From positions 1-26,700 of the IMG/VR virus record IMGVR_UViG_3300037483_001454: a stretch of 26,700 nt of DNA; one strand, written 5' to 3'. Shown here piece after piece: positions 8,044 through 26,700 of this stretch (position 1 is the stretch's first letter; each line of letters starts with the position of its first letter). The position numbers and the translations under genes were made by a program. The stretch comes from a virus (taxonomy: Duplodnaviria; Caudoviricetes). Under the pieces are notes generated by a model, which saw nothing but the letters and a program-made list of their open reading frames with translations, had not been told where the DNA came from and did no database searches.

Positions 8044-8834
8044 TGGAACTCGACAATCTGGACCAACTCGCCGCCTCGGCCTTCGACGGCTACCTCGTCC
8101 GCAAGGACCTCGTGCGCCGGTACAGCCGGCAATACCCGGTGCCGACCTACGTCGTTGAGTTCCTGCTCGGCCGGTACTGCGCGACGGTGGACGAACAAGA
8201 GATTGAGGAAGGATTGCAGATCGTCGAGCGGCAGCTACAGGACCGCACGGTCCGCACAAGCGACCAGGAGCTTTTCAAGGCCATCGACACGATCGACAAC
8301 GCCTTCAAGTTCTGCACTGACCACGTCAACGCCAAGCACAACGTCGAGTACGAGGGTGATCTGGATCACGGCAAGGGCTGGGCGTTCGTTAAGAACGAAT
8401 GGCACCGGGTTCTGACGCGCCTGGCCAGTCTGCCGCTAGGCCTGGTGCTGATCAGCCACGCAACGGACAAGCAGATCGAAACCCGCACCGGCAAATACAG
8501 CAAGACCCAGCCATCCCTGCCCGACCGCGCCCGTCATGTCGTGCTCGGCCTGGTGGACATGATCCTGTACTGCGACACCGTGTCACGCCCGCGAGCCAAC
8601 AGTTCGGGGGGCGGCACTTCGGGGGGCGGCACTTCCGGGGGCAGCAAGGGCAGTGAGATCGTTCGCATCATCCGCACGAAGCCACATCCGACCTACGAGG
8701 CCGGTGATCGCACGGGCCGTCTGCCCGAGGTGATGCCGCTCGATTTCGCCGCGTTTGCCAGTCACTTCGCCACGCCGGGCAAGCCCGACGCCGCTGCATC
8801 CGCCGCACAACCGCAACCTTCCAGCAAGGAGTAA
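8043..8834 (+). CDS. brxL: In-frame chimera: BrxL N-terminus (8043-~8282) fused to the C-terminal half of a phage AAA_24/Sak4-like NTP-binding protein (~8283-8834)
   Basis: aa 1-80 MELDNLDQLAASAFDGYLVRKDL...PVPTYVVEFLLGRYC...QELFKA match the BrxL start. The sequence then switches to IDTIDNAF (Walker B remnant), GKGWAFVKNEW, LVLISHA, GLVDMILY and YEAGDRTGRLP, typical of AAA_24. No Walker A and no Lon domain. Confidence 0.8.
   Translation: MELDNLDQLAASAFDGYLVRKDLVRRYSRQYPVPTYVVEFLLGRYCATVDEQEIEEGLQIVERQLQDRTVRTSDQELFKAIDTIDNAFKFCTDHVNAKHNVEYEGDLDHGKGWAFVKNEWHRVLTRLASLPLGLVLISHATDKQIETRTGKYSKTQPSLPDRARHVVLGLVDMILYCDTVSRPRANSSGGGTSGGGTSGGSKGSEIVRIIRTKPHPTYEAGDRTGRLPEVMPLDFAAFASHFATPGKPDAAASAAQPQPSSKE
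8601..8645 (+). repeat. Three 15-bp tandem units encoding SSGGG-TSGGG-TSGGS
   Basis: AGTTCGGGGGGCGGC / ACTTCGGGGGGCGGC / ACTTCCGGGGGCAGC; each is a variant of TTCCGGGGGC. Confidence 0.85.
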
Positions 8835-8839
8835 CTGCC

Positions 8840-9469
8840 ATGACTGATCCTTCAATGACCGTCACGACGACCAACGAGCCCGCCTTCGATCCTGCCAATC
8901 CCGGTGGCGCGACGCCGCCCGTGGCGGACGGTGCCGGCTTCGACGCCAGCCCCGCCGAGCACGAAGCGTTCAATGACCCGACTCCGGGGCCGGGGGCGGC
9001 AGTTCCGGGGGCGGGGGATGGGACGGTTCCGGGGGGCGTCAGCGACCTGAGCGTCTTCGACGAAGAGTATGACGAGGCCGAGGTGCCGACTTACGAGGAG
9101 GTGCCTGACGGCAAGTACCAGGTTCGCGTGCAGCGCGCGGCGCTGGGCACCAGCCAGGCAGGCGACGCGATGCTCAAGTGGGACCTGGTGGTGTTGTCCG
9201 GTCAAGACGCAGGCCGCCACGTGTTCAAGAACGCGGTGATCACGCACAAGTCGCTTCCGTTCGTCAAGGGTGATCTGCACACGCTCGGTGTGCAACTGTC
9301 CAGGTTCAGCGACCTGCCCAATCACCTGGAGGCGCTACTCGACCAGACGCTGGAGATCACCAAGCGCACGCGCGGTGAGTACACCAACGTCTACTTCAAC
9401 CGCCGGCTCGAAGGCCTGTCCAGCGAAGGCTTTGAGGGTCTGGCCAGCGATGAGCCGACGCCGTTTTGA
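8840..9469 (+). CDS. DUF669 family protein (phage ssDNA-binding-like)
   Basis: VPDGKYQVRV...GDAMLKWDLVVLSGQDAGRHVFKN; acidic C-terminal tail ending PF; follows the AAA_24 gene; AAGGAG RBS. Confidence 0.75.
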   Translation: MTDPSMTVTTTNEPAFDPANPGGATPPVADGAGFDASPAEHEAFNDPTPGPGAAVPGAGDGTVPGGVSDLSVFDEEYDEAEVPTYEEVPDGKYQVRVQRAALGTSQAGDAMLKWDLVVLSGQDAGRHVFKNAVITHKSLPFVKGDLHTLGVQLSRFSDLPNHLEALLDQTLEITKRTRGEYTNVYFNRRLEGLSSEGFEGLASDEPTPF

Positions 9470-9632
9470 GTGATGCATTTCAGCGACGTTTGGTTGATCG
9501 GCTCCCGTTCAAGCCAGCGTCAGTCGTGGGGCCGCCCCTGGCCTCGTCTCCCTTCCGGGGTCCCGGAGGTCTCGGGGTCAGGGGTCGGCTTTTCACCCGG
9601 AACGCAGACAGGCTAGCAAAGCGGATGCGCCC

Positions 9633-10067
9633 ATGGACTTTACGATCATCATCGATTCGCGCGAGCAGCAACCGTACTCGTTCGACTGCTCCACGTCAGT
9701 CCGCAAACTCGAAGCCGGCGACTATTCGGTTGCCGGGCATGAGCATCGCATCGCGGTGGAGCGCAAGAGCCTGCCGGACTTCGTACACACCGTCATCCAC
9801 GACGCACCGCGCTTCCGCAACGAGTTGGCCAAGCTCTCGGCCTGCCAGTTCGCCTGCGTCACCGTTGAGGCTGACCTGGACCAGGTGCTGCGCGGGCTGC
9901 GCCAGTCCGACCTGCGACTGGTGACGCCGACGGCCGTGCTGGGTGCGGCCTTACACGTCGCCGTGCACCACCGCATCCCCGTCTACTGGTGCGGCAGTCG
10001 CCAGGCCGCCTGCGCGTTCACCGAGGCGTTCCTTCGAATGGCGGTGCGTGAGGGGGTGGCGGCGTGA
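9633..10067 (+). CDS. ERCC4/XPF-domain nuclease
   Basis: IIIDSREQQP, LEAGDYSV, AVERKSLPDF (GDx..ERKxxxD signature). Confidence 0.88.
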   Translation: MDFTIIIDSREQQPYSFDCSTSVRKLEAGDYSVAGHEHRIAVERKSLPDFVHTVIHDAPRFRNELAKLSACQFACVTVEADLDQVLRGLRQSDLRLVTPTAVLGAALHVAVHHRIPVYWCGSRQAACAFTEAFLRMAVREGVAA

Positions 10068-12211
10068 GTCAGACGATCCATGGCACGGTCGTGAAGACCT
10101 ACTACAGCGACGCGCAGTTCTCGGCCGGCGTGATCGCCACCGACGACGGAACGCAGGTGCGGTTCCGCGGGCGGTTGTATGCGGCCGAAGGCGACCGGCT
10201 GTCGGCCATCGGGCAGTGGACGATGGACCCGAAGTACGGCCATCAATTCGAGATCAAGCAGCTCGACTATGAACTGCCGCAGACCCGTGAGGGGCTGATC
10301 AACTACCTGTCGAAGCACCCGGCTTTCGTCGGCGTGGGGCAAAAGAGCGCCGAACGGATCGTGGATGTACTGGATAACGGTGAAGACCTCAGCGAAGCCC
10401 TGCGTAGTCGGTTGGATGATTTCGTCGCTGCGGGTGTACCGCGCAAGACGCTCGAGGCCTTGGCCGAATCGTGGAACCAGCACGCCGGGGAGAATGCCGT
10501 CCGCTCGTACCTCGCCGGGTATGGCCTCACCCCGCACCAGATGCAGACGCTGCTGGAAAAATTCGGCACCAGCATCGTCTCGGTGCTCAAGCACGATCCC
10601 TATCTGCTGATCAAACACCTGGCCGGCTACGGCTTCAAGAAGGTCGATCAGATCGCCTTAAAACTCGGCATCGCCAAGACGCATCCGGGCCGGATCGAAG
10701 CGGCGCTGTCTTACTGCGTCGCGCAGCAGATCAGCAATGGCCACACATGGACCCTCGGCAGTGAGCTGGTGACGCAGGCGAATGAAGCGTTGGTGATCGA
10801 CACGCTCGACAGCCGCGATCTGATCCAGGCGGCCGGCAACCGGCTGATCGCCAGCGGTGACCTGATCGCCGACGGCTGTGCCGTGACCTTGCCCTGGCTC
10901 CATCGCGACGAGCAGTTGATCGAAGCCGCCTTCCAGGGCGCGGTACGAGGAGACGACGAGACACCCGACGTGTTGACCTGTCGTCCCGAGGACGATCTCA
11001 GCGATGATCAGCGTGAGGCGTTCGAGACGGCGGTCACCAATCGCATCTCCGTCATCTCCGGCGGTGCGGGCACCGGCAAGACCTACGTGGTGGCCCGACT
11101 CGCCCGTCGATTCCAGGAGGCAGGCCTCGTCGTCAGTCTCGCCGCCCCGACGGGCAAGGCCGCCAAACGCATCGAGCAACTGCTGCGCGCCCATGGTGTC
11201 GATCTATCTGCGTCCACGATTCACCGCCTGCTGGGCTACAACGGCATTGCGTTCCGCGAAGACATTCTGCCGGCGGACGTGGTCATCATCGACGAGGTGT
11301 CGATGGTCGACGTGCCCCTCATGGCCGAATTGCTGCGCCACATCGACCCCCGGAAAACCCGCATGATCCTCGTCGGCGATCACAACCAGTTGCCGCCGGT
11401 CGGCCCCGGCAACGTGCTGCGCGACATGATCCAGCACAACCTGGTGCCGGCCACGGTGATGACGAAGGTCCACCGCCAGGCCGGCGTGCTGAAGACCAAC
11501 AGCGTGGGTGTCCTGAACGGACAACTGGCACCGACCGCCACGGACGATCAATCGCGGTGGATGGTCGTCAACCGCTTCCGCGATGCGCAGGCCATCAAGC
11601 ACTGGCTGCGTGATCTGGTCCTGACGGACATCCCGAAGCAGTTCGGATTCGATCCCGTCCACGACGTGCAGATCATCACACCGGAGCACCGTGGCCCGTT
11701 GGGCACACGGTCGCTCAATCAGATGATGCAGTATCTGCTCCGCCCCCGGAATGGGACGTTGGAGGAAAGCAAGCCCGGGCGATCACTTCCGGGGGCGGGG
11801 GATAAGGTCATTCAGACGCGCAACGACTACGAGCTGGGCGTGATGAACGGCACGATCGGCTTCGTGCGGGAGGTGGGCAAGAGCGGATTGGTGATCGACT
11901 TCGAAGGCAAGGAAGACGTCGAGGTCGACTGGAACAAGGCCAAGTCGGTGGAACTGGCGTACGCCCTGACGGCGCACAAGGCCCAGGGTAGCGAGTTCCC
12001 TTGCGCCGTGGTGCTCTGCCACAAGTCACACTTCTTCGCGGATCGCAACTGGCTCTATACAGCCGTAACCCGCGCTGCCCACACCTGCGTGCTGGTTGGC
12101 GATGACTACGGGTTGCGCCGGGCGGCGGGTCAGGTGCGGAATACCAAGCGACGGACCTGGTTGAGTCTCTGGGCGTCGCGGTCGCAGCAGTTGCAGGAGG
12201 CTGCGGCATGA
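10064..12211 (+). CDS. recD2: RecD2-like SF1B DNA helicase
   Basis: N-terminal OB/HhH region (GVGQKSAERIV, GYGFKKVDQIA), Walker A GGAGTGKT, APTGKAAKR, IIDEVSMVD, VGDHNQLPPVGPG, YALTAHKAQGSEF, YTAVTRA; GTGA overlap with the ERCC4 gene. Confidence 0.93.
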   Translation: MSQTIHGTVVKTYYSDAQFSAGVIATDDGTQVRFRGRLYAAEGDRLSAIGQWTMDPKYGHQFEIKQLDYELPQTREGLINYLSKHPAFVGVGQKSAERIVDVLDNGEDLSEALRSRLDDFVAAGVPRKTLEALAESWNQHAGENAVRSYLAGYGLTPHQMQTLLEKFGTSIVSVLKHDPYLLIKHLAGYGFKKVDQIALKLGIAKTHPGRIEAALSYCVAQQISNGHTWTLGSELVTQANEALVIDTLDSRDLIQAAGNRLIASGDLIADGCAVTLPWLHRDEQLIEAAFQGAVRGDDETPDVLTCRPEDDLSDDQREAFETAVTNRISVISGGAGTGKTYVVARLARRFQEAGLVVSLAAPTGKAAKRIEQLLRAHGVDLSASTIHRLLGYNGIAFREDILPADVVIIDEVSMVDVPLMAELLRHIDPRKTRMILVGDHNQLPPVGPGNVLRDMIQHNLVPATVMTKVHRQAGVLKTNSVGVLNGQLAPTATDDQSRWMVVNRFRDAQAIKHWLRDLVLTDIPKQFGFDPVHDVQIITPEHRGPLGTRSLNQMMQYLLRPRNGTLEESKPGRSLPGAGDKVIQTRNDYELGVMNGTIGFVREVGKSGLVIDFEGKEDVEVDWNKAKSVELAYALTAHKAQGSEFPCAVVLCHKSHFFADRNWLYTAVTRAAHTCVLVGDDYGLRRAAGQVRNTKRRTWLSLWASRSQQLQEAAA

Positions 12212-12228
12212 AGCGTCACGCGCAGCAT

Positions 12229-12651
12229 TCAATCAGTGTCCAGCGCGGCAAGGAAGCTAGCCGGCGACATGACGGGAAGATCGGCGTTGCGATAGTGGCG
12301 CAGGTCGCGTGTGACAATGCAGTCGGCTTTGCCGCGGACGGCGCAGTGGTACTGGATGGCGTTTTCGAAATCCTTCACTGGCGAGTCAAGGGCCTGCCGC
12401 AGAATCTGTTCGTCGAGTTCGACGACCTCGAAGACGCTGAGCAAGAGGGAGATACCGCGCTGGGCTGTACGGGAATCCGACGCCTGGCGAAGCAGGTAGT
12501 ACAGCGTGCTGAAACTGTCGGCCGAAACCAGCCCTTCGATCTGCCTGGTCTCGGCGGCCGTCCATATCCGTTCGGCGTCGGCCAGAAACGGCTCACGCTC
12601 GCCGAGCACATCGAGAAGAACGTTGATGTCGATCAGGGGACGACGCATCAC
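12229..12651 (-). CDS. PIN-domain toxin (PIN_3/VapC-like)
   Basis: LIDINVLLD...DFENAIQYHCA...IVTRDLRHY acidic PIN motifs; 4-bp overlap with the upstream antitoxin. Confidence 0.88.
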   Translation of the reverse strand: MMRRPLIDINVLLDVLGEREPFLADAERIWTAAETRQIEGLVSADSFSTLYYLLRQASDSRTAQRGISLLLSVFEVVELDEQILRQALDSPVKDFENAIQYHCAVRGKADCIVTRDLRHYRNADLPVMSPASFLAALDTD

Positions 12652-12911
12652 TTGCCGTATCGCTCTCGCAGGGCCGACTCAATCAGCTGCCGGTCCGTCT
12701 TGTCGCTCGGCAGTTTGACCAGTCCGCGAGCCTTCCTGGTGATCGGGCCAATTGGTCGGCGGCCCGCCTGGTCGCGTCGTGACGACTCTGAACCGGACAT
12801 CCCTTTGATGAACTGGCTGAACATGGCCGACACGCTCGTGCCACGTTCTTCGGCGAGACGCTTGGCCCGTTCGATCACGGCCTTGTCCGCACTGAGGGTG
12901 AGCTTGGGCAT
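12648..12911 (-). CDS. Ribbon-helix-helix antitoxin (DUF6364-like)
   Basis: MPKLTLSADKAVIERAKRLAEERGTSVSAMF RHH pattern; directly upstream of the PIN gene. Confidence 0.82.
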   Translation of the reverse strand: MPKLTLSADKAVIERAKRLAEERGTSVSAMFSQFIKGMSGSESSRRDQAGRRPIGPITRKARGLVKLPSDKTDRQLIESALRERYGK

Positions 12912-12923
12912 CGTCGGGCTCCT

Positions 12924-12954
12924 ATACGTACTGTACTCACTTGATTGTACGTAT
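12924..12954. promoter_or_regulatory. Inverted repeat, likely TA autorepression operator
   Basis: ATACGTAC-15 bp-GTACGTAT just upstream of the antitoxin RBS. Confidence 0.55.
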
Positions 12955-13037
12955 CGTCATTTGGCGAGGCAACCTTTTGCTCTGGAGTTGGCTGCGCGCG
13001 CCGGTTTTCTCGGTGGCGTGGGGTCGGAAGTGGTGTA

Positions 13038-15410: not shown

Positions 15411-15682
15411 CACATCCATGACACATCCTGACGCATCGGAAAACGCATGTGTCATGGGTCAAGCCCCGGATAGCACGGCGGTTATAGAAACCATGACACA
15501 TCTGACACGTTCTCCCCCGAAAGTCACATACGCGTGCGCCTGTGTAGGCAGACAGATAGAAGCGCCATGGGGAAGTCTTGGCAAACGTGTCACATCCGTC
15601 ATCGCAACGTCGCTGAAAGGACTCAAACAATGCACACCCAATCACTTAGCGACCATGACACATCCATGACACATCCGTCATC
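15407..15682. repeat. Iteron-like ATGACACATC(C) direct and inverted repeats (candidate replication origin)
   Basis: Direct copies at 15407, 15418, 15493, 15655, 15666; variants at 15429 and 15503; inverted copies at 15447 and 15585; immediately after the primase stop. Confidence 0.7.
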
Positions 15683-15692: not shown

Positions 15693-16010
15693 ATGCCAGA
15701 GATTGACCTGGGGCGACGGCTGCTCGATATGCTCCGGCACAACCTTTTGGTGCCGGATATCCGTGACGAACTGTTCCCAAAGCGATCTGTACGACATGCC
15801 CGCGATCTGATCGTTCGCATGGCCGAGCGCCCCGAGTTCGCCACCGCAATCTGCACCACGTGGGGCAACGACGTGGGTGCCGCTGGCGTGAGCGCCTGGC
15901 GAAGCTGGTGCGGTAGCCAACGAACATCGCGAGATCGTCTTCGCTCGCTTCGTCGCCTCGTCCGTCTGTGCGACGACATCCATGCGTTCATCAGCGGAGA
16001 TGCGATGTGA
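15693..16010 (+). CDS. Hypothetical phage protein (start uncertain)
   Basis: MPEIDLGRRLLDML... has host-like codon use; the stop overlaps the next ATG (TGATG); the upstream extension reads through the iterons. Confidence 0.55.
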   Translation: MPEIDLGRRLLDMLRHNLLVPDIRDELFPKRSVRHARDLIVRMAERPEFATAICTTWGNDVGAAGVSAWRSWCGSQRTSRDRLRSLRRLVRLCDDIHAFISGDAM

Positions 16011-16453
16011 TGGACGCAGACGCCAATCGCTACATGACCTGCGACTACGACGATCCCGCAAAGCCCGTCTACACACCTGCGGACGATGTCCTGGAGTTCA
16101 AGCGCTCGGTGCGCTTCGCCGCCATCGACGTGATGATCCTCGCGTTCGCCGCACGCCGTCACGCCGAGTGGCTAAGCGAAATTGGCGTCTGCCCACCCGA
16201 CATCGCCAAGCTGATCCGCAAAGACCTGGCATACATAACCAATGTCCTGGACCGCGAGCGCCAGGATGTGGCCGCGCCGAGGCCCACCTCCGGGGGTTCG
16301 CCCACGTTGGGCGACGTTGGCCCACGTTCGCCAGGGGCGGCCCGGGCGACCACGCCTACGCCGACGCTCTTCGACGCCACACACCCCGGAACGTGGCGAC
16401 GTGGGCTAAACCGGCCGAAGGGGCCAAGCGAGGCCATAACCGGCGAGGCATAG
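16010..16453 (+). CDS. Hypothetical phage protein
   Basis: ATG 16010 coupled to the previous stop, GGAG upstream; coding-like first ~85 codons. Confidence 0.6.
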   Translation: MDADANRYMTCDYDDPAKPVYTPADDVLEFKRSVRFAAIDVMILAFAARRHAEWLSEIGVCPPDIAKLIRKDLAYITNVLDRERQDVAAPRPTSGGSPTLGDVGPRSPGAARATTPTPTLFDATHPGTWRRGLNRPKGPSEAITGEA

Positions 16454-16559: not shown

Positions 16560-17969
16560 ATGAAGATCGTCAAACGCAGCATCGATGACATCCGCCCCTA
16601 CGAGAACAACCCGCGCCAGAATGATGACGCGATCGATGCGGTGGCCAAAAGCCTGCAGGAGTTCGGTTGGCGTCAGCCGATCGTCGTCGATGAAGACGGC
16701 GTGATCATCGTCGGCCACACCCGCTGGAAGGCGGCGAAGAAACTGGGCGTCAAGGAAGTGCCGGTCCACGTGGCCACTGACCTGCCGCCGGAGAAGGTAC
16801 GAGCGTACCGTATCGCCGACAACCAGACCTCGACGTTGTCGGAGTGGGACTACGACCTGCTGCCGATCGAACTGACGGCGCTACAGGACGCTGACTACGA
16901 CCTGGACCTGCTGGGCTTCGGTGAAGATGCCCTCAAGTCCATCCTCGCCCCGGCCGGCAACGAAGGTCTGACCGATCCGGACGAGGTGCCCGAGCCGCCG
17001 GACGATCCGATCACCCAACGCGGTGACATCTGGGTTCTCGGCAATCACCATCTGCTCTGTGGTGACAGCGGGAGCGTCGAAGACCTGGACCGACTGCTCG
17101 CGTCGGGCGGCGTTCCGGGGGTTGACCTGGTGAACATGGACCCGCCGTACAACGTGAAAGTTGAGCCGCGCAGCAACAACGCCATTGCGGCGGGTGTGAC
17201 GTCGTTCTCACGACGCGAAGACCTGCAGTGCGAACGATCACAGAGCGAACGCGGCCAGCGCGATCGCCAGCGGCTTCAGAAGAAGATGCATCACCAAGGC
17301 CTCGACTTGGCTCGCCACCCGGAGAAAGCCAAGGCGACGCACAAAAAGATGCGGGCCAAGGATCGCCCGCTCGCCAACGACTTTGTGAGCGACGATGACT
17401 TCGACCACATGCTGCTGGCTTGGTTCGGCAACGCCTCGCGCGTGCTCAAGCCTGGCGGTTCGTTCTACATCTGGGGCGGGTACGCCAACCTTGGCAACTA
17501 CCCCGGCCCGCTCAAGGCGGCGGGGCTCTATTTCAGCCAGGGCATCGTTTGGGACAAGCAGCACCCGGTGCTGACGCGCAAGGATTACATGGGCGCGTTC
17601 GAGATCTGCTTCTACGGTTGGAAGGAAGGCGCGGGCCACCACTTCTATGGCCCGAACAATGCCACCGACCTGTGGCACGTGAAGAAAGTCAACCCGCAGG
17701 CGATGGTCCATCTGACCGAGAAGCCGGTCGAACTGGCGACGCGAGCGATTGAGTACTCGTCGAAGCCGGGTGAGAACGTGCTCGACCTGTTCGGCGGGTC
17801 GGGGTCGACGTTGATCGGATGCGAGCAGACGGGCAGGCGTGCGTTCCTGATGGAACTCGATCAGGCATATTGCGATGTGATCGTCCAGCGATGGGAGCAG
17901 TTCACCGGGAAGAAGGCCGAGCGTGTGCCGGCAGCATCCGGTCAGGAGTGCGAAGCTGATGCGGCCTGA
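16560..17969 (+). CDS. ParB/Srx N-terminal domain fused to an N6A/N4C DNA methyltransferase (beta class)
   Basis: PYENNPR, FGWRQPIVVD, IIVGHTR, RAYRIADN; MTase motif IV MDPPY precedes HLTEKPVEL and motif I VLDLFGGSGST; GGAG before ATG 16560. Confidence 0.92.
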   Translation: MKIVKRSIDDIRPYENNPRQNDDAIDAVAKSLQEFGWRQPIVVDEDGVIIVGHTRWKAAKKLGVKEVPVHVATDLPPEKVRAYRIADNQTSTLSEWDYDLLPIELTALQDADYDLDLLGFGEDALKSILAPAGNEGLTDPDEVPEPPDDPITQRGDIWVLGNHHLLCGDSGSVEDLDRLLASGGVPGVDLVNMDPPYNVKVEPRSNNAIAAGVTSFSRREDLQCERSQSERGQRDRQRLQKKMHHQGLDLARHPEKAKATHKKMRAKDRPLANDFVSDDDFDHMLLAWFGNASRVLKPGGSFYIWGGYANLGNYPGPLKAAGLYFSQGIVWDKQHPVLTRKDYMGAFEICFYGWKEGAGHHFYGPNNATDLWHVKKVNPQAMVHLTEKPVELATRAIEYSSKPGENVLDLFGGSGSTLIGCEQTGRRAFLMELDQAYCDVIVQRWEQFTGKKAERVPAASGQECEADAA

Positions 17970-17970
17970 A

Positions 17971-19128
17971 TCACGCGGTGTCCTTGGTCAGCAAATCGAG
18001 GTAGCGGCGGTAGGCGTAGACCCGATCTCGCTGCTTGCCGGTGGTCTCATGAAGGATGCCAGCATCCTCCAGCGCCCTAATGGCCTTGATCGCCGTAGGT
18101 GTGGTGGTATCGAGCAGTTCGGTCGTCAGTGGCAGCGTCACGATCGGATGCTTGGGCAGAAGATCGAAAAGGCGGATAGCGGTTACCGTGGCGGAGTCAT
18201 GCTGGGCGACCGCCGCGCGGTCGGTGTTGATCCGGTTGAACAGCGATTGGGCGACGGCCACGCCATCGTCAGCCGCCTCCCTGACACACTCGAGGAAGAA
18301 GCTAGTCCAGCCCTCCCAATCCCCTTCGGTGCGAACAGAGGACAGCTTCTCGTAATAGAGCCGTCGATGCTTCTTGAACGCGAGACTGAGGTACAGCAGC
18401 GGCGCATCGAGCATGTTCCAGTGTTCCAGGAGCAGCGTCACCAGCAGACGCCCGATGCGGCCGTTGCCATCGAGGAACGGGTGGATGGTTTCGAACTGGA
18501 CATGAGCCAGTCCGGCTTTAATCAGTGGCGGAAGCGGATCGTCGCTGTGCAGCCATGCGTCGAGTTCAGCCATCGCGTTCACGGCCACATCCGGCGGCGG
18601 CGGAACAAACGCCGCGTTGCCCGGGCGCGTGCCGCCGATCCAGTTTTGCGAGCGACGGATCTGGCCCGGTTCCTTGTGCTGCCCACGAACGCCCTTCATC
18701 AGTCGCTTGTGAACCTGACACAGCAGACGCGTGCTCAGGGGCAGTCCCTTGGGCTGGGCGATCTCGCGACGGGCGTAGTTCAGCGCATCGACGTAGTTGC
18801 AGACTTCCTGAACATCGTCCGGGCGATCCGCCTGCTCCGTCGCTTCGTAATTCAGCACGTCCTCGAGGGTCGCTTGCGTGCCTTCGATCTGCGAGGAGAC
18901 CACCGCTTCCTTGCGAACGAATCCGTAAAGGAACCACTCGGCACTGGGGACCATGGCACCAGCGACCGACAAGCGGGCAAGCGAGGCATTCGCTGCCGAC
19001 ATCAGATCGCGCATGGCGTCGTCGAGTTGCAGAACGGGATCGGTCGGTGGCAGCGGATGCGGGATGAACGCGCGCACCTGCTCTTGCCCCGCTGTCGTTG
19101 CGCGATAGGTTCCGGTGGTCCGCGGCAT
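17971..19128 (-). CDS. fic: Fic family protein (class II, N-terminal inhibitory helix, C-terminal wHTH)
   Basis: Canonical HPFLDGNGRIGR; SSQIEGT inhibitory motif; AAGGAGG RBS. Confidence 0.93.
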   Translation of the reverse strand: MPRTTGTYRATTAGQEQVRAFIPHPLPPTDPVLQLDDAMRDLMSAANASLARLSVAGAMVPSAEWFLYGFVRKEAVVSSQIEGTQATLEDVLNYEATEQADRPDDVQEVCNYVDALNYARREIAQPKGLPLSTRLLCQVHKRLMKGVRGQHKEPGQIRRSQNWIGGTRPGNAAFVPPPPDVAVNAMAELDAWLHSDDPLPPLIKAGLAHVQFETIHPFLDGNGRIGRLLVTLLLEHWNMLDAPLLYLSLAFKKHRRLYYEKLSSVRTEGDWEGWTSFFLECVREAADDGVAVAQSLFNRINTDRAAVAQHDSATVTAIRLFDLLPKHPIVTLPLTTELLDTTTPTAIKAIRALEDAGILHETTGKQRDRVYAYRRYLDLLTKDTA

Positions 19129-19261: not shown

Positions 19262-19290
19262 ACGGGGCAACGGGAGCGGGAAACGTCGCT

Positions 19291-19917: not shown

Positions 19918-19968
19918 CGCAGTTCTCCTGGTTGGAGGGTGAAAGGGAACAATTCCGGGGGCGTAGGC

Positions 19969-20205: not shown

Positions 20206-20226
20206 GGTGGTCTGGTCCTTTCTGTC

Positions 20227-20493: not shown

Positions 20494-20601
20494 GGCCTAT
20501 CTCCTTGTGGTGGCTTGCGTTACAGACACATTGAGCCATGACTTCGCGCCCGCAGCAAGCAGTTAAGCCCAGAATTTGCAGTTATTTATGAGATTCACGA
20601 A

Positions 20602-20829
20602 ATGGCCCGCCGCGACAGGCAAAACCCGGTCCAGTCGGCCGAATCTGGCCAAGCATTCGACCCATCTGCGCTATCTATGCCGGTGGCCGCCAAGGTGCTC
20701 GGCCTGACCGAGGGCACGCTGCGCAAGCATGTCGATGAGGGCCTGCCGCTGAATGCGGACGGGTCGCTGAACCTGGTGACCTATGCCGCCTGGCTCAACG
20801 GAACGGATGAGGGCAGCGATGGCGATTGA
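20602..20829 (+). CDS. Small HTH protein, likely terminase small subunit DNA-binding domain
   Basis: MPVAAKVLGLTEGTLRKHVDEGLP...NLVTYAAWL wHTH pattern resembling the gpNu1 N-terminus; overlaps the large terminase start. Confidence 0.6.
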   Translation: MARRDRQNPVQSAESGQAFDPSALSMPVAAKVLGLTEGTLRKHVDEGLPLNADGSLNLVTYAAWLNGTDEGSDGD

Positions 20830-23092
20830 TATCCGTGAGCTCAGCCCGACCGAACTGATCCGACTGGTCAACTCCACGCCGCTCGGGCCGGTGCTCAATG
20901 CGCCCAAGCTCAACCGCCAGATGAACGAGGCGGGGTTCCGCATCACGCCCGGAAGCAATGCGAAACGCATCAGCCTGGTGAAGTACGTTGCGTGGCTGGC
21001 CAAGCGCCGCGAGCAACCACGCAAGGCAACGATCAGCTACACCGAGCGCAAGCAGCGCGAGGCCGAACGCAACCTTGCCAAGAGCCGGGCCGGCCGCGAC
21101 ATCGGCCCATCCCCGGAAGTGGCCCCGGAAGGTGTCCAGCGCCGGGAACGCTGCGCAAACAGCTTCCGGGAGTTCTGTGAGACGTATTTTCCGGGGGCGT
21201 TCTGTCTGCGGTGGTCGGAAGACCACCTACGTGTCATGGCGAAGATTGAACGTGCCGTCTTGCACGGCGGTCTGTTCGCGTTCGCCATGCCGCGTGGCAG
21301 TGGCAAGACCACGCTCGCGCGTGTGGCGGGCATGTGGGCGGTGCTATACGGGCACCGCGAGTATGTCTGTCTGATCGGGTCCGCAGAAGACCAGGCCAAG
21401 AACATCCTCGAATCGATCAAGCGCGACCTGCTGGCCAATGATCTGCTGTTGGCGGATTTCCCGGAGGCGATCTACCCGATCCGCAAGCTGGAGAACAACG
21501 CCCGCCGGCAGATCGGCCAGCTCTGCAATGGCGAGCCGACGTACATCACCTGGTCGGCCGACCGCTTGGTCATGCCGACAATGTCCAACTCCCCATCTTC
21601 CGGCGGCATCGTCACCGTCGCAGGCCTGGACTCCAACATCCGTGGCCAGCAGCACACCAAGATGGACGGATCGATCATCCGCCCGTCGCTGGTAATCCTC
21701 GACGATCCGCAGACCCGGCAGTCGGCGGCATCGGCGACTCAGACGCGCCACCGCCTTGCGATCCTCAATGGCGACGTGCTCGGCATGGGCGGACCTGGCG
21801 TGAAGATGGCCGGGTTCATGACCTGCACGAAAATCTACCACGACGACCTGGCCGACCAGATTCTCGACCGGCAGCGTAACCCCGACTGGCAAGGCGAATG
21901 CACGAAGATGGTGTATGCGTTTCCTTCCGGCGCGGAACCTGAGAGGCTGTGGGATCGCTATGCTCAGATTCGCGCCGACAGTCTGCGTGCCGACGGCGAC
22001 GGTGCGGAAGCGACCGAGTTCTATCAGAAGAACCGTGAGGCCATGGACGCCGGTGCGGTGGTTGCCTGGCCGGACCGCTACAACGATGATGAGATCTCAG
22101 CACTTCAGCATGCGGTGAATCTCAAGCTCCGTGACGAAGAGGCCTTCCTCGCCGAATACCAGAATGAGCCGCTGAGCGAGCAGGCCGAGGACGACATCCT
22201 CACGTCCGACCAGGTGGCCGATCGGTTCAATGGCCGGCCCCGGAAGCTGGTGCCTGCGGCGGCGACGCATCTGACGGCCTTCATCGACGTGCATGATCGC
22301 CTGCTGTATTACGTGGTTGCTGCATGGGAACAGGGCTTCACCGGCTATGTGGTGGACTACGGAACCTGGCCGGATCAAAAGCGAATGCACTTCACAATGC
22401 GGGATGCCAAGAAGACGCTGGGTGACTTACTGCCTGGCGCGGGCGTCGAAGGCGCAGTGCAGTCGGGGCTCGAGGAATTGGCGACGAACTTACTGACGCG
22501 TGAATGGAAACAGAACGAGGGCGCGACGCGCATCGATCGACTGTTGATCGACAGCGGATATCTTCCCGGCGTCGTCGCCAATGTGTGCCTGAAGGTTCCG
22601 GGGGCGGGTAGCGTGATGCCGTCCAAGGGCGTGGGTATTCGGGCCGGTAACAAACCCATGGCGTCGTACCGGCGGAAACCCGGTGAGCGGCACGGTCACC
22701 ACTGGTACATGCCCAACGTGTCGCGGACGACGGAGATTCGCCACGTCCAGTTCGACGCCAACTACTGGAAGACGTTCGTCCACGCCCGCCTGGCGACCAC
22801 GCCGGGTGACCGGGGATGCCTGACGCTGTTCGGTAAATCAGCGAACGAGCATCGGCTGTACGCCGAGCACATCGCCGGTTCCGAGGTCAGCACCGTCACC
22901 GAAGGCCATGGGCGGATGGTGCGGGAGTGGGCGCTGCGCCCGTCTCGTCCCGACAACCACTGGCTCGATTGTTTGGTCGGGGCTGCGGTGGCTGCGTCGA
23001 TGTGTGGGGTGCGGCTGGGCATCGAGCCAGCGAGTGCTCGCGAGGTACGTCAACCCATGCGTCTTTCGGCGCTGCAGCAGTCGCGACGCTGA
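20819..23092 (+). CDS. Terminase large subunit (GpA-type nuclease domain)
   Basis: Walker A AMPRGSGKTT, Walker B VILDDPQT, AEYQNEP, nuclease LTAFIDVH, LIDSGY, DNHWLDCLV; upstream of portal. ATG at 20819. Confidence 0.9.
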   Translation: MAIDIRELSPTELIRLVNSTPLGPVLNAPKLNRQMNEAGFRITPGSNAKRISLVKYVAWLAKRREQPRKATISYTERKQREAERNLAKSRAGRDIGPSPEVAPEGVQRRERCANSFREFCETYFPGAFCLRWSEDHLRVMAKIERAVLHGGLFAFAMPRGSGKTTLARVAGMWAVLYGHREYVCLIGSAEDQAKNILESIKRDLLANDLLLADFPEAIYPIRKLENNARRQIGQLCNGEPTYITWSADRLVMPTMSNSPSSGGIVTVAGLDSNIRGQQHTKMDGSIIRPSLVILDDPQTRQSAASATQTRHRLAILNGDVLGMGGPGVKMAGFMTCTKIYHDDLADQILDRQRNPDWQGECTKMVYAFPSGAEPERLWDRYAQIRADSLRADGDGAEATEFYQKNREAMDAGAVVAWPDRYNDDEISALQHAVNLKLRDEEAFLAEYQNEPLSEQAEDDILTSDQVADRFNGRPRKLVPAAATHLTAFIDVHDRLLYYVVAAWEQGFTGYVVDYGTWPDQKRMHFTMRDAKKTLGDLLPGAGVEGAVQSGLEELATNLLTREWKQNEGATRIDRLLIDSGYLPGVVANVCLKVPGAGSVMPSKGVGIRAGNKPMASYRRKPGERHGHHWYMPNVSRTTEIRHVQFDANYWKTFVHARLATTPGDRGCLTLFGKSANEHRLYAEHIAGSEVSTVTEGHGRMVREWALRPSRPDNHWLDCLVGAAVAASMCGVRLGIEPASAREVRQPMRLSALQQSRR

Positions 23093-23101
23093 GCGGTGGA
23101 C

Positions 23102-24067
23102 CTATCCCCCGTGGTGCTGGCGGACGTTGACAGCCTTCCACTGAACGGCTGGATGCTTCGCAATCCGGTCACGCATTGCTGGATCATCCGTCAGCAGTTC
23201 GGGGTGAATCTCGCCGCGTTCCAGAAGGTTGTCGAGGAATTGGCGCTCGTTCTCGCGCAACGGGAGCACGAGGGAAACCGCCTCACGACACTCATCAATG
23301 AGCTGTTGAGCCCACGGGTGGGGACCATCGCCCGGCAGCGCTGCCTGCCGGACCACTGGCAACAACTGGTCTCGAAGCTCATCCGCGTCGTACGCAATGT
23401 CGTCGACATGAACGGTGCGCCAGTCTTTGCGATTCATGCCTCCGTATACGACGAATCCCAGCCGAAGTTTTGCCTGATCCAGGTCTGTCTGCGTGAGCAA
23501 ACGATGGGCGTCGAACAGATCGCGACTGGCGTGCCGCGCGAACAGCGCCGCGAGCTTGCCGGCCGCCAACTCATGCAGGTCGAGTACGGGAAACACCTTC
23601 GCTTGATGATTGCCCACCCGTACCGAGTCCGACTTGGTGATGGGCCACAGCGGCACGCGGAACATGAAATTCAGATCGACCTCCAGGTTGCCGCCATCGC
23701 TCAAGGCGCTGTTGTATCGCAGTCGCCACTTGCCGCCGGCGTGGTCGGTGGGCATGCGGTTGATGGCCATGCCCTCGCGGCCACAAACATCCTGCAGCGC
23801 CTTCTCAACCTTCGGACGCTCCTCAAGCATGGCTTGGCGATCCTCCGCCGCCACGTAGTTGAGATCGATGTCCACCGACAGTCGTGGCAGGTCGAACAAG
23901 AACAGGTTCAGCGCCGTCCCGCCTTTCAGGGCCAGACGGTCTTTGAGGAACGGATGGCCCTGGATGGCGTTGAGCAGGTTCAGCAGGTGGATCACCTTCT
24001 CCAGTATCTCAGGCCGGAAACCTGTCGACGACGCATTTTGCATGAGCGATTCACGAGAGAGATTCAC
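23102..24067 (-). CDS. abiEii: AbiEii/AbiGii-family nucleotidyltransferase toxin (type IV TA)
   Basis: LALKGGTALNLF...RLSVDIDL; KLAAL..R...RDLFD; GTG start at 24067 overlaps the abiEi stop, GGAGG RBS. Confidence 0.9.
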   Translation of the reverse strand: MNLSRESLMQNASSTGFRPEILEKVIHLLNLLNAIQGHPFLKDRLALKGGTALNLFLFDLPRLSVDIDLNYVAAEDRQAMLEERPKVEKALQDVCGREGMAINRMPTDHAGGKWRLRYNSALSDGGNLEVDLNFMFRVPLWPITKSDSVRVGNHQAKVFPVLDLHELAAGKLAALFARHASRDLFDAHRLLTQTDLDQAKLRLGFVVYGGMNRKDWRTVHVDDIAYDADELRDQLLPVVRQAALPGDGPHPWAQQLIDECREAVSLVLPLRENERQFLDNLLERGEIHPELLTDDPAMRDRIAKHPAVQWKAVNVRQHHGG

Positions 24068-24864
24068 AAGACCTCCTCCCAGCGCCGCTCCAGCACCTCG
24101 GGCGGTACGACCAGATTCCACGCTGAGACCAGCTTGCCACTCCGGCCCCGCACCAAGTAGTGTGGTTGCTTGGGCCGGCGTTTGCGCAGCTTTGCCAGAT
24201 GCTTCTCTTCGACCCAAAGCGCCTCAGCGTGTTGTTCCAGGTAGAACCCAACCTTCGCCGTGGTGGTCGCGTTATCGAGCAGGTTGACATATGCCAGGAT
24301 CAGGTCCAAGTCGAAATACTCGACCAACTCGAGCGACCGCCAGACCTCTTCCCAACCACCACTGAGCTTGGGACGATCCAATGCGTCGACCAGCGCCCGC
24401 TCAACTTGCGCAACGCGCACATCAACGCCTTGACGGTCGGCGAGCTTGGTCGCGAAGAACTCCTGGCCGGCGTCACGCAGCGGTTTGGGGAAAGGCACCC
24501 CTTCAAAGTGCAACTGGTCGAACGTGGTCGGCCGCAGGGCACGACGGCTCTGCACGACGTAGCGGTCAAAGACGGTGTACGCCTTGCCGTGGAACTCGAG
24601 CGCAGTGTGGTAGGCCAGCACAGCATCCTCGGCGAGCTTGGCCGCCACCAGGTACGGATCGACCGAGTGATCTTCGCGAGTGGCTCCAGGCGGCACGACT
24701 GCGTAGAGGCCTCGACGAACACGGCGGAGATTGCCCTGGCTGAGGTGGTAGCGCAACAGGGCCTCCTGCGATCGCCGGTTGGAGGAGTACTCGGCATCCA
24801 GACGATCAAGCACCTCGGCATGCGTGAGCACTGGTTTGCTGGCGAAGAGTTGCTGGAGTCCCAT
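24064..24864 (-). CDS. abiEi: AbiEi-family antitoxin/transcriptional regulator
   Basis: N-terminal wHTH ending LRRVRRGLYAV; AVLAYHTALEFHG; VERALVDALDRPKLSGGWEE; ATG 24864 with AAGGA. Confidence 0.88.
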   Translation of the reverse strand: MGLQQLFASKPVLTHAEVLDRLDAEYSSNRRSQEALLRYHLSQGNLRRVRRGLYAVVPPGATREDHSVDPYLVAAKLAEDAVLAYHTALEFHGKAYTVFDRYVVQSRRALRPTTFDQLHFEGVPFPKPLRDAGQEFFATKLADRQGVDVRVAQVERALVDALDRPKLSGGWEEVWRSLELVEYFDLDLILAYVNLLDNATTTAKVGFYLEQHAEALWVEEKHLAKLRKRRPKQPHYLVRGRSGKLVSAWNLVVPPEVLERRWEEVL

Positions 24865-24888
24865 GGGGTCATCCTTGCTGATCAGCCT

Positions 24889-25012
24889 CAATACACGTAA
24901 CAAAACTACGGGTATTGCAAGCGTTCTTCAAGTATCGGCCCCCGCAGCCATTGGCTTGAGAAAAACTCGCGATACACGTAATAACACTACGTGTATCGAC
25001 CATATTTGTCAA
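24889..25012 (-). promoter_or_regulatory. Tandem abiE promoter/operators with two inverted repeats
   Basis: IR1 CAATACACGTA-7-TACGGGTATTG (24889-24917) and IR2 CGATACACGTA-7-TACGTGTATCG (24970-24998). TTGACA-17-TAGTGT (25012-24984) plus a second TTGAAG-17-TAGTTT 81 bp downstream. Confidence 0.8.
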
Positions 25013-25107
25013 GTCTCAGTGGTGGGTTTCCTCCCTGCGGCCCGGCAAAGCCATGAGGCGAACGCCGTAGCGGTCAGCCCCCCCCTCAATCGGCATACAT
25101 ACCCACC

Positions 25108-25179
25108 AGCGGGATAGAGCAGCGGTAGCTCGCCAGGCTCATGCCCTGGAGGACGCGGGTTCAAATCCCGCTCCCGCCA
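25108..25179 (+). tRNA. tRNA-Met(CAT), initiator-like, variant anticodon loop, no encoded CCA
   Basis: Acceptor AGCGGGA/TCCCGCC (1:72 mismatch); D arm GAGC-AGCGGTA-GCTC; anticodon arm CCAGG-CTCATGC-CCTGG; T arm GCGGG-TTCAAAT-CCCGC. Confidence 0.88.
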
Positions 25180-25190
25180 TTAGGAAGCCC

Positions 25191-25388
25191 ATGGCCGAAG
25201 ACCTTTCCAACTCGATCAAGACCAACGCCGAAGGCCCGGCCAAGGCCAGCGGTGACTCCGGCAGCGTCGAGCAGCACGCGATCGGCGATCAGATCGCTGC
25301 CGACAAGTACCTCGAGTCAAAGAAGGCCAGCCGCACCAAGGGGCTGGGGATCAAGCTGACCAAGATTTCTCCGGGAGGGACCGTCTGA
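25191..25388 (+). CDS. Small head gene, gpW-like head-tail joining protein by position
   Basis: 65 aa between terminase and portal; AGGA RBS; stop coupled to the portal ATG (TGATG). Confidence 0.65.
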   Translation: MAEDLSNSIKTNAEGPAKASGDSGSVEQHAIGDQIAADKYLESKKASRTKGLGIKLTKISPGGTV

Positions 25389-26700
25389 TGTGGCCATTCC
25401 GCCCCCGGAATCGCAGCGCAAATCGGTCGCGCCCGGCCATCCCAGGGGTGGTTCGCGCCCGCTTCGATGCGGCGCAGACAACCGCCGAGAACGCCCGCCA
25501 CTGGGCGATGGCCGATGCGATGTCGGCGGACGGTGCCGCCTCGGCCGACGTCCGCAGGAAGCTCCGCGAGCGTGCTCGCTATGAGGTGGCCAACAACAGT
25601 TACGCCAAGGGCATTGTGCTGACCATCGCCAACGACGCCATCGGCACTGGGCCTCGCTTGCAACTGCTTACCAATGACAGCGAGATCAATCACCGTGTCG
25701 AGGTGGCATTCGCCCAATGGGCCAGGACCGTCAAACTGGCCGAGAAGCTCCGTGCAATGCGCATGGCCAAGTCGACCGACGGCGAGGCCTTTGCCGTACT
25801 CACCGCCAACCCGGTGATCGACTCGCCGATCCAACTCGATGTGCAGTTGGTGGAGGCCGACCGGGTCGCATCGCCAGTCATGTCGATGCTGGCGACGTCC
25901 AACGACATCGACGGCATCATCCTCGATCCCTATGGCAATCCTCACACCTACACGATCCTGCGTCATCACCCCGGAAGCCCCGGAAGTTTAACTGCGTGGA
26001 ATACGCCGTATGACATGGTGCCCGCTGACGCGGTGGTGCACTGGTTCCGCGTCGATCGCCCAGGCCAGCATCGGGGCGTTCCGGAGATCACGCCGGCCCT
26101 GCCGCTGTTCGCGCAGTTGCGGCGCTACACACTGGCGGTCATCGCAGCGGCCGAGACTGCTGCCGACTTCGCGGCTGTGCTGTTCACCGACGCCCCGGCC
26201 AACGGCGAAGCGCAGGCGCTCGAACCAATGGACGTGGTCGAACTTGAAAAACGCATGGCCACCGTGCTGCCCGATGGCTGGCGATTAGGCCAAGTCGAAG
26301 CGCAACAGCCCACAACCAGTTACGGCGAGTTCAAACGCGAGATCCTCAACGAAATCGCTCGCTGCCTGAACCTGCCATTCAACGTCGCTGCCGGCAACAG
26401 CGCCGGCTACAACTACGCCTCCGGTCGGCTCGACCACCAGACCTACTTCAAATCCATCCGCGTCGAACAGGCGCACCTGGCTGAGACGGTCCTCGATCGC
26501 ATCTTCGCCGCGTGGGTTCACGAGGCCATGTTGATGACCGAGTTCGCCTTCCTGCGCACGATGAGCCGCCGGGCTGATTTCCGGGGGCAGTGGTTCTTCG
26601 ACGGCACTGAACACGTCGATCCCGCCAAGGAAGCCAACGCGCAAGCGACCCGCCTGGCCAACAACACCACCACGCTCGCGGCGGAGTACGCACGCCAGGG
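25388..26700 (+). CDS. Phage portal protein, lambda family; 3'-partial, not in ORF track
   Basis: MWPFR...RARFDAA...LRERARYEVANNSYAKGIV...DGEAF...VEADRV...RPGQHRGVPEITPAL...YNYASGRLD...HVDPAKEANA. Confidence 0.93.
   Translation, partial: MWPFRPRNRSANRSRPAIPGVVRARFDAAQTTAENARHWAMADAMSADGAASADVRRKLRERARYEVANNSYAKGIVLTIANDAIGTGPRLQLLTNDSEINHRVEVAFAQWARTVKLAEKLRAMRMAKSTDGEAFAVLTANPVIDSPIQLDVQLVEADRVASPVMSMLATSNDIDGIILDPYGNPHTYTILRHHPGSPGSLTAWNTPYDMVPADAVVHWFRVDRPGQHRGVPEITPALPLFAQLRRYTLAVIAAAETAADFAAVLFTDAPANGEAQALEPMDVVELEKRMATVLPDGWRLGQVEAQQPTTSYGEFKREILNEIARCLNLPFNVAAGNSAGYNYASGRLDHQTYFKSIRVEQAHLAETVLDRIFAAWVHEAMLMTEFAFLRTMSRRADFRGQWFFDGTEHVDPAKEANAQATRLANNTTTLAAEYARQ

Follow-up and report, generated by a model that had tools for sequence, protein, structure and literature searches.

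A short DNA motif (TTCCGGGG as an 8-mer, TTCCGGGGG as a 9-mer) that is dispersed through a temperate phage is a host-lineage signature, common to some Phycisphaerales chromosomes, unrelated viruses, and islands, and its gains leave the 3' flank kept and the 5' flank disturbed. A host process may well be pasting one short fixed single-stranded oligonucleotide into DNA during the repair of gaps or breaks. A full-text literature search found no earlier report of the motif, in agreement with the original prediction that it was undescribed.

The window, the whole stretch of 26,700 nt that was analysed, contains 22 copies of the 8-mer (11 on each strand), and 15 copies of the 9-mer (10 plus, 5 minus), with an extra C in 12 of the 15; the first copy is at 8633 and the last at 26579. 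The recount matches exactly the 15 9-mers, 12 extended copies, and 7 further 8-mers counted earlier. The motif is the commonest 8-, 9-, and 10-mer of the window, where an order-3 Markov model expects 1.16 copies of the 8-mer and 0.27 of the 9-mer. The motif-free parts, the phage core, and the copies are as follows:

1..8282, no strand assigned: motif-free; STAND-like ORF and partial BREX (pglX, pglZ, start of brxL)
8283..26700, plus: core genes of a temperate, lambda-like Planctomycetota phage (AAA_24, DUF669, ERCC4, RecD2, D5-type primase-helicase, ParB-MTase, HARE-HTH, terminase gpA, lambda portal)
12229..12911, minus: motif-free cargo, PIN toxin-antitoxin pair
17971..19128, minus: motif-free cargo, Fic (SoFic) gene
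23102..24864, minus: motif-free cargo, AbiEi/AbiEii pair
8609..8642, plus: copy at 8633 and two imperfect copies 5' of it at period 12; in-frame insertion SSGGGTSGGGTSGG in the AAA_24 part of a BrxL::AAA_24 fusion
9003..9035, plus: DUF669 gene; two copies 24 nt apart in an insertion missing from loci L035 and L038, and in part from a variant in run X2
9553..9560, plus: 8-mer, intergenic between DUF669 and ERCC4
11347..11355, minus: RecD2, block replacement of unchanged length (PRK here; LDR, LEQ, FNR, FSR, or IDH in seven orthologues)
11742..11796, both strands: divergent pair (11742 minus, 11787 plus, the latter with an extra CGGGGG unit) in a RecD2 loop longer than that of L038
13359..13392, minus: primase gene; two copies 12 nt apart with extra G5 units in an insertion of about 10 codons, which has a third copy in L001
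13978..13993, plus: primase linker; copy followed by CGGGGG, with one further CGGGGG in L001 and run X2
16384..16391, minus: 8-mer near the end of a 148-aa ORF, missing from five orthologues
17113..17121, plus: ParB-MTase gene, copy among about 3 inserted codons; the L001 copy is imperfect
19953..19962, plus: 10-mer, intergenic between HARE-HTH and a 78-aa ORF
21111..21198, both strands: terL; minus copies at 21111 and 21123 (12 nt apart) and a plus copy at 21189, in divergent geometry
22238..22245, minus: terL 8-mer, at the same codons in five relatives
22596..22605, plus: terL 10-mer; the L002 and L035 orthologues differ by one synonymous change
25401..25410, minus: portal gene, 10-mer at its start
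25969..25985, minus: portal gene; two 8-mers 9 nt apart forming a 3-codon insertion (HPGSPGS vs HPG)
26579..26588, plus: portal gene 10-mer (FRGQW vs mostly PHQW); L042 has the motif at the same junction, and so does L223, where it is a 9-nt insertion

Phage core genes (14,040 bp) have 20 copies of TTCCGGGG compared with 1.19 expected from synonymous-codon shuffling (maximum of 5 in 300 shuffles), and these copies occupy all six frames; the motif is thus a mark at the level of DNA and not a peptide or codon effect, on both strands and in every reading frame, as had been proposed. The cargo and defence genes, together 11,079 bp, have none, a significant contrast with the core (p 9e-6, or p 1.6e-4 if about 15 clusters are counted). 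Their reported lack of the motif is real, but with 0.30 copies expected it is the background level and not avoidance. The intergenic copy at 19953 is also real, but is not the only one, since the 8-mer at 9553 is a second. Alignment of orthologues confirmed the low-complexity segments as genuine insertions that keep the frame. Contigs of run X1, a possible source of this DNA, have the same letters; run X2 differs at motif sites, with CGGGGG added behind 13980 and 15 letters missing at 9000.

The way in which copies arise was examined in 49 independent gains from 37 gene pairs of at least 80% DNA identity, with the direction of change read from the nearest motif-free relative and not reconstructed. 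These comprise 18 insertions, 18 blocks of at least three changes, and 13 near-matches, the last being ordinary changes. Control 8-mers differing in the same pairs (n=3,547) comprise 40 insertions (1.1%), 508 blocks, and 2,999 near-matches; the excess of insertions is significant (Fisher p 2e-21), with the insertion share inflated because motif sites lie in tolerant loops. As had been suggested, the motif is actively spread; insertions and blocks make up 36 of the 49 gains. Identity over 12 nt is 0.61 in the 5' flank and 0.76 in the 3' flank (identity is lower on the 5' side in 32 events and on the 3' side in 12; Wilcoxon p 0.001), an asymmetry that loop tolerance does not inflate. Clean 9-nt insertions are found in the portal genes of L223 and L256, terL of L245, and DUF669 of L039, and a clean 12-nt insertion in the ParB-MTase gene of L202 lies between sequences that are 91% identical. 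Judged by eye, several 3' joints have partial G matches and others have none, and the L223 insertion, compared with L239, has a 3' junction without G microhomology.

Copies are also arranged in polar arrays. In 1.85 Mb there are 182 pairs on the same strand at 8-20 nt compared with 6.1 expected, the 848 perfect copies are accompanied by one-mismatch copies 104 times upstream and 22 times downstream, and pairs within 80 nt are divergent in 50 cases and convergent in 8 (15.0 expected for each). Array periods are 9, 12, 15, and 18, with locus-specific spacers, and in genes 55 of 57 tandem pairs are spaced by a multiple of 3, as are 20 of 41 pairs outside genes. The extension is fixed: in 458 kb of genome G060, TTCCGGGGGCGGGGG occurs 46 times and its T variant twice.

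The motif is not confined to phages. In 22 of 151 Phycisphaerales genomes there are 200-2,129 copies, housekeeping genes included, while 89 of the 151 are below twice the control. A sample of 350 genes from G060 has 205 copies compared with 13.0 after shuffling, in 108 of the genes (asd, recQ, hemW, and an xerD-like gene among others). Density in G060 is 0.549/kb in coding and 0.555/kb in non-coding DNA; the G001 sample is intergenic-biased (0.13 vs 0.59). Such copies in host housekeeping genes overturn the original prediction of a system belonging to this element. Density varies 70-fold within one family of 19 genomes and more than tenfold between sister genomes. G010 is low and its sister G068 high, and the complete genome G087 has 32/Mb while its trio partners G054 and G101 have 194 and 85. 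A phage of 194 kb with its own replisome (G394) carries the motif 118 times (control, 1), and on the motif alone its host would be a member of Phycisphaerales. Mu-like and serine-recombinase elements and G394 are as dense as the phage studied here.

The best reading of these patterns is a process that would be like SPDIR (for short-patch double illegitimate recombination), but with one dominant donor. The donor would be abundant, with the core TTCCGGGGG, often RC before it, and CGGGGG after it; its G-rich 3' end would anneal to exposed single-stranded DNA of either strand and be extended, while its 5' side would be joined with resident letters lost or gained. Older copies would then shift 5' as events recur at one junction. 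Mobile elements are likely to be richer in copies since their passage takes them through writing hosts and they are more tolerant of change, and cargo genes are likely too recent for marking. Okazaki-type priming would predict a lagging-strand bias, and the 67 leading and 80 lagging copies at 19 loci with clear skew count against it. A search of 5S rRNA (4 genomes), tmRNA (4), and 23S-containing regions (3) gave no donor locus. Likewise, none of eight protein families profiled tracks motif density; RecJ is present in 60/60 genomes and MutS in 58/60. More tentatively, some Phycisphaerales could carry a horizontally moving dedicated writer, an enzyme by which a fixed oligonucleotide is made or added and gaps or breaks in any DNA of the cell are healed. 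If so, bacteria would have an equivalent of telomere healing, with thousands of scars of 9-15 nt as its traces and a continual seeding of Pro/Gly-rich loops in host and phage proteins.

An uptake tag like the DUS of Neisseria is rather unlikely. In that case the competence machinery would favour motif-bearing DNA and cut near the motif, and the cell would fill with motif-ended fragments, which would push near-matches to the consensus and sometimes be pasted at microhomologies. The presence of copies on both strands and in all frames, their equal density inside and outside genes, and the 13 near-match gains are consistent with this, and outside DNA is reported to raise SPDIR through transformation (10.1101/2023.11.22.568220). 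ComEC is present in 59/60 genomes, and the one without a match is G087, the low member of its trio; however, ComEC is found in high and low genomes alike, including all 32 low genomes of the panel with G010 among them, and the 70-fold range within one family also argues against a tag. DUS and the USS of Pasteurellaceae are reported to evolve by point mutation and not by insertion (PMC1939737). In G060, words with one mismatch at positions 3-7 are about as frequent as expected, or rarer, a weak objection since DUS itself is reported to drop 82-92-fold at one mismatch (PMC1939737).

Healing of broken ends by a telomerase-like polymerase is distinctly improbable, although it accounts for several of the features above. 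Using an internal template, the enzyme would extend broken 3' ends with the complementary strand (CCCCCG units followed by CCCCCGGAA), and the ends would then be rejoined sloppily. The flank that is kept lies on the primer side of the C-rich strand, the junction base on that strand is a purine in 305/330 G060 copies, CGGGGG units reiterate, divergent pairs are enriched while convergent pairs are not, and insertions without microhomology would be explained; moreover, bacterial telomerase-like reverse transcriptases have been described (DRT10, PMC12632851). However, RVT_1 was found in 11/22 high genomes (6/12 middle, 28/117 low) and was not found in G060, G110, G021, or G068, where absence is not proven because these are drafts and divergent enzymes could escape; 25/30 RT loci are without the motif. 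LigD polymerase is in 1/22 high genomes, PolX is ordinary and in 54/60, none of its columns tells 18 high genomes apart from 13 low ones, and the full motif is far commoner than bare CGGGGG repeats without TTC.

A HIP1-like ratchet of methylation and repair on the CCGG core, one of the originally suggested mechanisms, is very unlikely: the core, the lack of strand bias, and the near-match gains would fit, but the motif is asymmetric and most gains are insertions or blocks. A binding site (HARE-HTH, ParB domain, or stoperator-like) selected within this phage also has a very low probability. Motif density in the element (814/Mb) exceeds that of the densest host chromosome counted (626/Mb), one copy lies upstream of HARE-HTH, and the motif-rich state is clustered on the portal tree. 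Against this, co-occurrence with HARE-HTH, ParB-MTase, and RecD2 breaks down at L038, which encodes all three (41%, 78%, and 69% identity) and primase (72%) but has no copy in 18.4 kb, and G394 is dense although a search gave no match to HARE-HTH or ParB-MTase. No gene family separates 28 motif-rich from 77 poor loci (ParB-MTase 15 vs 31, HARE-HTH 14 vs 29), unrelated elements are equally dense, and whole-motif insertions are beyond the reach of selection alone. A stoperator or parS-like role is further opposed by the host-wide distribution and by the lack of orientation to transcription (94 sense vs 111 antisense in 28 family loci).

Chi is polar, and temperate phages can carry the Chi of their host. 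A polar signal of the Chi or KOPS kind, read by RecD2, AddAB, or FtsK, is nonetheless highly improbable: the motif is G-rich, asymmetric, and 8-9 nt long, and a few loci are one-sided (L512 3+/20-, L123 and L134 4+/15-16-), but strands are mixed along G107 (32+/28-), G049 (31+/18-), and G136 (9+/7-) and between leading and lagging copies, strand overdispersion in G060 is not significant (p 0.22), and most genomes of the order are below twice the control. The suggested role with RecD2 fails on polarity. G-runs and GGC contexts are error-prone in sequencing, but a sequencing or assembly artefact is refuted by the frame filtering of tandem pairs in genes, and the motif occurs in megabase contigs, is shared by independent records at orthologous codons, and is missing from cargo on the same contig.

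Gain of the motif alters conserved residues and adds protein loops, and if a host process is responsible, it would likely be an undescribed source of mutation that adds small loops to proteins. Since sister genomes differ so strongly, comparative genomics should be able to find the cause, and cultured Phycisphaeraceae are a possible test ground. The motif may also help to assign hosts to uncultured viruses such as G394 and, on a relative scale, to date the residence of a gene in a writing host.

The best-studied abundant bacterial words, DUS/USS and HIP1, reportedly spread by substitution (PMC1939737, PMC13756078), while a fixed word repeatedly inserted into or overwritten in genes is a mutational process unlike these or SPDIR. 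Like DUS/USS as reported, the motif is 9-10 nt long, asymmetric, lineage-specific, and present in hundreds to thousands of copies on both strands and in genes; unlike them, it arrives largely by insertions or blocks, forms polar tandem arrays, and has patchy density within a family. Cyanobacterial HIP1 is similarly a single over-represented short word in several frames of genes and patchy on the host tree, but it is a palindrome reported to introduce no insertions or deletions (PMC13756078), while this motif is asymmetric and comes with indels. As to Chi and KOPS, the motif is likewise short, G-rich, asymmetric, and over-represented, but has no replichore polarity and is missing from most genomes of Phycisphaerales. 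Cyanobacterial STRR and SDR, and also REP/REPIN, are very small inserted repeats that likewise come in by insertion, build tandem runs, and can be kept in frame; however, their unit is at least 20 nt or of fixed period and mainly intergenic, while the motif is mostly a single 9-mer, overwrites without change of length, has no fixed spacer or hairpin unit, and is as dense in the genes of G060 as between them. Telomeric repeats are inserted at repaired breaks in eukaryotes. Telomerase and DRT10, whose tandem-repeat synthesis is reported to be protein-primed (PMC12632851), share with the motif a fixed G-rich word, reiterated units, and one conserved junction, but here no reverse transcriptase tracks the motif and the usual product is one copy and not a long repeat. 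SPDIR, described in Acinetobacter baylyi, also gives clustered substitutions and microindels that resemble a foreign single strand pasted at short matches (10.1101/2024.07.02.601687). As reported, it is thought to use replication forks, has donors traceable to a genomic locus, rises on loss of RecJ, ExoX, or RecA, and is very rare in the wild type (below about 1e-12; 10.1101/2023.11.22.568220), while the motif has no lagging-strand bias, one fixed core without a donor locus found, and is abundant though RecJ and MutS are present. SPDIR products are highly variable in those accounts, and here one sequence recurs up to 2,129 times per genome.

Within the window the motif occurs as 22 copies of the 8-mer TTCCGGGG, 15 of the 9-mer TTCCGGGGG, and 12 of the 10-mer TTCCGGGGGC, spanning 8633 to 26588 with 11 copies on each strand. 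The core phage genes hold 20 copies, distributed over all six frames, versus 1.19 expected from synonymous shuffling (maximum 5 in 300 shuffles); the PIN, Fic, and AbiE cargo genes and the BREX genes hold none versus 0.30 expected. The enrichment is real, as claimed in the original prediction of a dispersed, over-represented motif in core genes, and it persists under the codon-preserving shuffle in which it might have been lost. The claimed absence from cargo and defense genes is accurate as a count, but cargo is merely at background level.

The motif is a host-lineage signature. A genome counted as high if it had 200 or more copies and also five times the reversed-motif control; among 151 Phycisphaerales genomes tallied (one row, G108, being unpublished, with no claim depending on that row by itself), 22 are high and 89 fall below twice the control, and none of 241 further Planctomycetota genomes reaches both thresholds, as read from the table. 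The top genome, G060, has 2,129 copies in 3.4 Mb, with densities over 478 kb of 0.549/kb in genes and 0.555/kb outside. Using a simple codon-score gene finder made for the analysis, 108 of 350 called genes carry the motif, with 205 copies versus 13.0 after shuffling. These include asd, recQ, hemW, and an xerD-like gene, and abundance in housekeeping genes is what the original prediction had named as indicating a host-wide signature instead of a phage system. A DnaG tree was built for 29 genomes (30 were hand-picked, and G034 was dropped, no sequence having been extracted). The high ones do not group together on it, and sisters differ at 182 versus 13 copies per Mb, which suggests that the cause is accessory or episodic. 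A 20-kb phage-like stretch of G060 (L124, G060:C8) has no 9-mer in this densest genome, and either arrived recently or was mis-binned. Two Planctomycetaceae loci, L063 and L049, have other enriched short words, AACTCCCA (26 times in 16.9 kb) and ATTCTCCC (nine times), perhaps parallel signatures.

The window belongs to a virus record, and from 8.3 kb the element encodes AAA_24, DUF669, ERCC4, RecD2, a D5-type primase-helicase, ParB-MTase, HARE-HTH, terminase gpA, and a lambda-type portal, with the PIN, Fic, and AbiE genes scattered among the core genes and a partial BREX locus on the left. Among relatives in genome contigs, 26 of 27 are labelled Planctomycetota or a group within it, those most similar being Phycisphaeraceae and a single Planctomycetales bin. 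A metagenome scan gave no relative above 73%, and cultured-phage records match the portal at <60% only. Individual features of the window are as follows.

8043-8834: single ORF of the BrxL N-terminus and the last two thirds of phage AAA_24, fused at the common ELFKA
15400-15680: clustered ATGACACA repeats in both orientations, 3' of the primase gene, likely origin iterons
16007-16453: 148-aa ORF with no Pfam match
24891-25017: upstream of abiEi, a pair of imperfect 46-nt direct repeats plus a 26-nt inverted repeat that likely form its autoregulatory operator
25108-25179: tRNA-Met (CAT) gene, between abiE and a small head gene

The fused ORF reflects either a BREX/prophage deletion or a chimeric join; its junction is covered by a 651-nt contig of run X1, a possible source of the window DNA, and in the related loci L280 and L035 AAA_24 is intact with a PD-(D/E)XK nuclease gene ahead of it. 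Clustered words are also found in relatives, with L038 sharing ATGACACA and L003, L014, L017, and L204 having others.

A phage-specific system, as originally proposed, is not supported. Host chromosomes carry the motif, and L038, with a terminase 81-82% identical, encodes HARE-HTH, ParB-MTase, RecD2, and primase and has no copies in 18.4 kb (its bin has 61 versus 30 for the control). The 98 portal relatives comprise 24 rich, 12 intermediate, and 62 poor loci, and on a quick portal tree the rich state requires 10 changes, 7 of them forced by well-supported branches, versus 21.5 with shuffled labels. No gene family sets the 28 motif-rich loci apart from the 77 motif-poor ones. The 148-aa ORF was rejected as a reader or writer: it occurs in seven rich and no poor loci, but poor loci seldom cover the region, and the rich locus L139 showed no such ORF. 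In low-count hosts the motif is concentrated in unrelated islands, with 13 8-mers per 20 kb in each of two, a Mu-like prophage and a serine-recombinase element; of the six 20-kb flanking stretches in G009 and G087, five have no 9-mer. A 193.6-kb phage, G394, which encodes DnaE, a DnaG-type primase, DnaB, and RecA of its own, shows 118 copies versus 1 for the control, a density suggesting a Phycisphaerales host. This large phage (G394:C1:1-193655, L478-L487) is 97% complete and also encodes RecD2, a RuvB-like protein, class II ribonucleotide reductase, and a 5,163-codon ORF. Lower-GC (0.54-0.57) members of the phage family (L367, L403, L386, L372, and L413) are also motif-rich, so some hosts may belong to lower-GC lineages.

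The manner in which copies arise was examined at 67 gain sites from codon alignments with a motif-free relative, reduced to 49 by pairwise realignment, a requirement of at least 80% identity, and collapsing of clusters. These comprise 18 insertions, 18 blocks (at least three changes within eight letters), and 13 near-matches, versus 1.1%, 14.3%, and 84.6%, respectively, for 3,547 other 8-mers that differ within the 37 pairs concerned. For example, the window RecD2 has PRK where seven orthologues have LDR, LEQ, FNR, FSR, or IDH, and the window primase has about ten extra codons made of motif and G5 units; around dnaG, comparing host orthologues yielded a single informative site. Flank identity is 0.76 on the 3' side of the G-run versus 0.61 on the 5' side of TT (p 0.001), an asymmetry for which tolerant loops cannot account because the sites within genes point either way. 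In the extended consensus the motif is preceded by RC and followed by CGGGGG, and at 13980 a run X2 variant carries an additional CGGGGG. Same-strand neighbours 8-20 nt apart number 182 versus 6.1 expected across 1.85 Mb of motif-rich DNA, most of them at spacings of 9, 12, 15, and 18. Tandem spacing is kept in frame in 55 of 57 pairs in genes versus 20 of 41 outside, and this frame filtering rules out an artefact and indicates that selection acts on the products. In the same 1.85 Mb, there are 104 imperfect copies on the 5' side of perfect ones and 22 on the 3' side, and pairs within 80 nt are divergent in 50 versus 15 expected and convergent in 8 versus 15 expected. Counts over the whole genomes of five hosts point the same way (89 versus 21), although several of the G142 pairs stem from a single copied repeat. 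Repeated hairpin elements whose arms are divergent motif copies occur at L103 and L113 of G142 and at L116 and L127 of G060.

A fixed word cannot recur in independent insertions without a template, and a short donor strand is read as the simplest explanation. Host-level writing of a fixed word is well supported as a pattern; in the mechanism proposed from it, a short donor strand of fixed sequence would anneal by its G-rich 3' end, be extended, and be joined on the 5' side with variable loss or gain. The chemistry would be SPDIR-like with one dominant donor and no fork bias. Strands are mixed along three megabase-scale contigs, third-position skew as a measure of fork direction at 19 loci places 67 clusters leading and 80 lagging, and G060 has 104 sense versus 99 antisense copies. 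Replichore polarity was rejected when apparent plus-strand runs in G087 and G107 disappeared in fuller counts. Three 20-kb loci are nevertheless one-sided (L512, L123, and L134), but strand overdispersion does not reach significance (p 0.22 in G060 and 0.08 in both G107 and the phage family); the most one-sided seen, L512 (G107:C2:1500001-1520000; 20 minus versus 3 plus), is an island with ThiF, JAB, C5-methyltransferase, and HSP90-like ATPase genes. The same geometry would result if the complementary strand were added to broken 3' ends, a route that better explains joints lacking microhomology; the sequence alone does not separate it from donor annealing. The fragments could stem from a DUS-like bias in uptake. 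A repeated IS-like end in the first 55 bases of four G003 contig starts (L083-L086) holds the motif near its terminus, but IS ends are rejected as the source, as gained copies keep the resident 3' flank and not an IS end.

Candidates for the writer were sought in a panel of 60 genomes hand-picked from the 151 (22 high, 6 middle, and 32 low). Density is not tracked by RVT_1 (all 151 genomes), LigD polymerase and AEP small subunit (7 of 60 each, in identical genomes), MutS (58), RecJ (60), ComEC (59), or topoisomerase IB (0 of 5). PolX and DnaG do not track it either: PolX, in 54 of 60, has no discriminating column in 31 sequences, nor does DnaG in 29. A retron-like RT group is shared by high and low genomes. 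The single genome of the 60 lacking a ComEC match, G087, is on one 4.1-Mb contig and is the low member of its trio with G054 and G101; this one case hints at a link to low density. As donor RNAs, 5S rRNA (4 genomes), tmRNA (4), and 23S-containing regions (3) do not have the word in the RNA genes, and no RNA holding the motif was listed. A dedicated writer, if found, would make the motif categorically new.

The motif was not found described in the literature covered, which excludes most subscription journals. In PMC1939737, DUS and USS are described as evolving by point mutation, not insertion, whereas 18 of the 49 gains here are insertions. HIP1 is described in PMC13756078 as introducing no indels. 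SPDIR products are variable and in wild type arise below about 1e-12, according to 10.1101/2023.11.22.568220; the supplementary mutation lists of both SPDIR preprints could show recurrent donors. The motif looks most like DUS and works most like SPDIR, but each has a defining test that it fails, and it is filed as an abundant, very short genomic repeat with an undescribed mode of spread.
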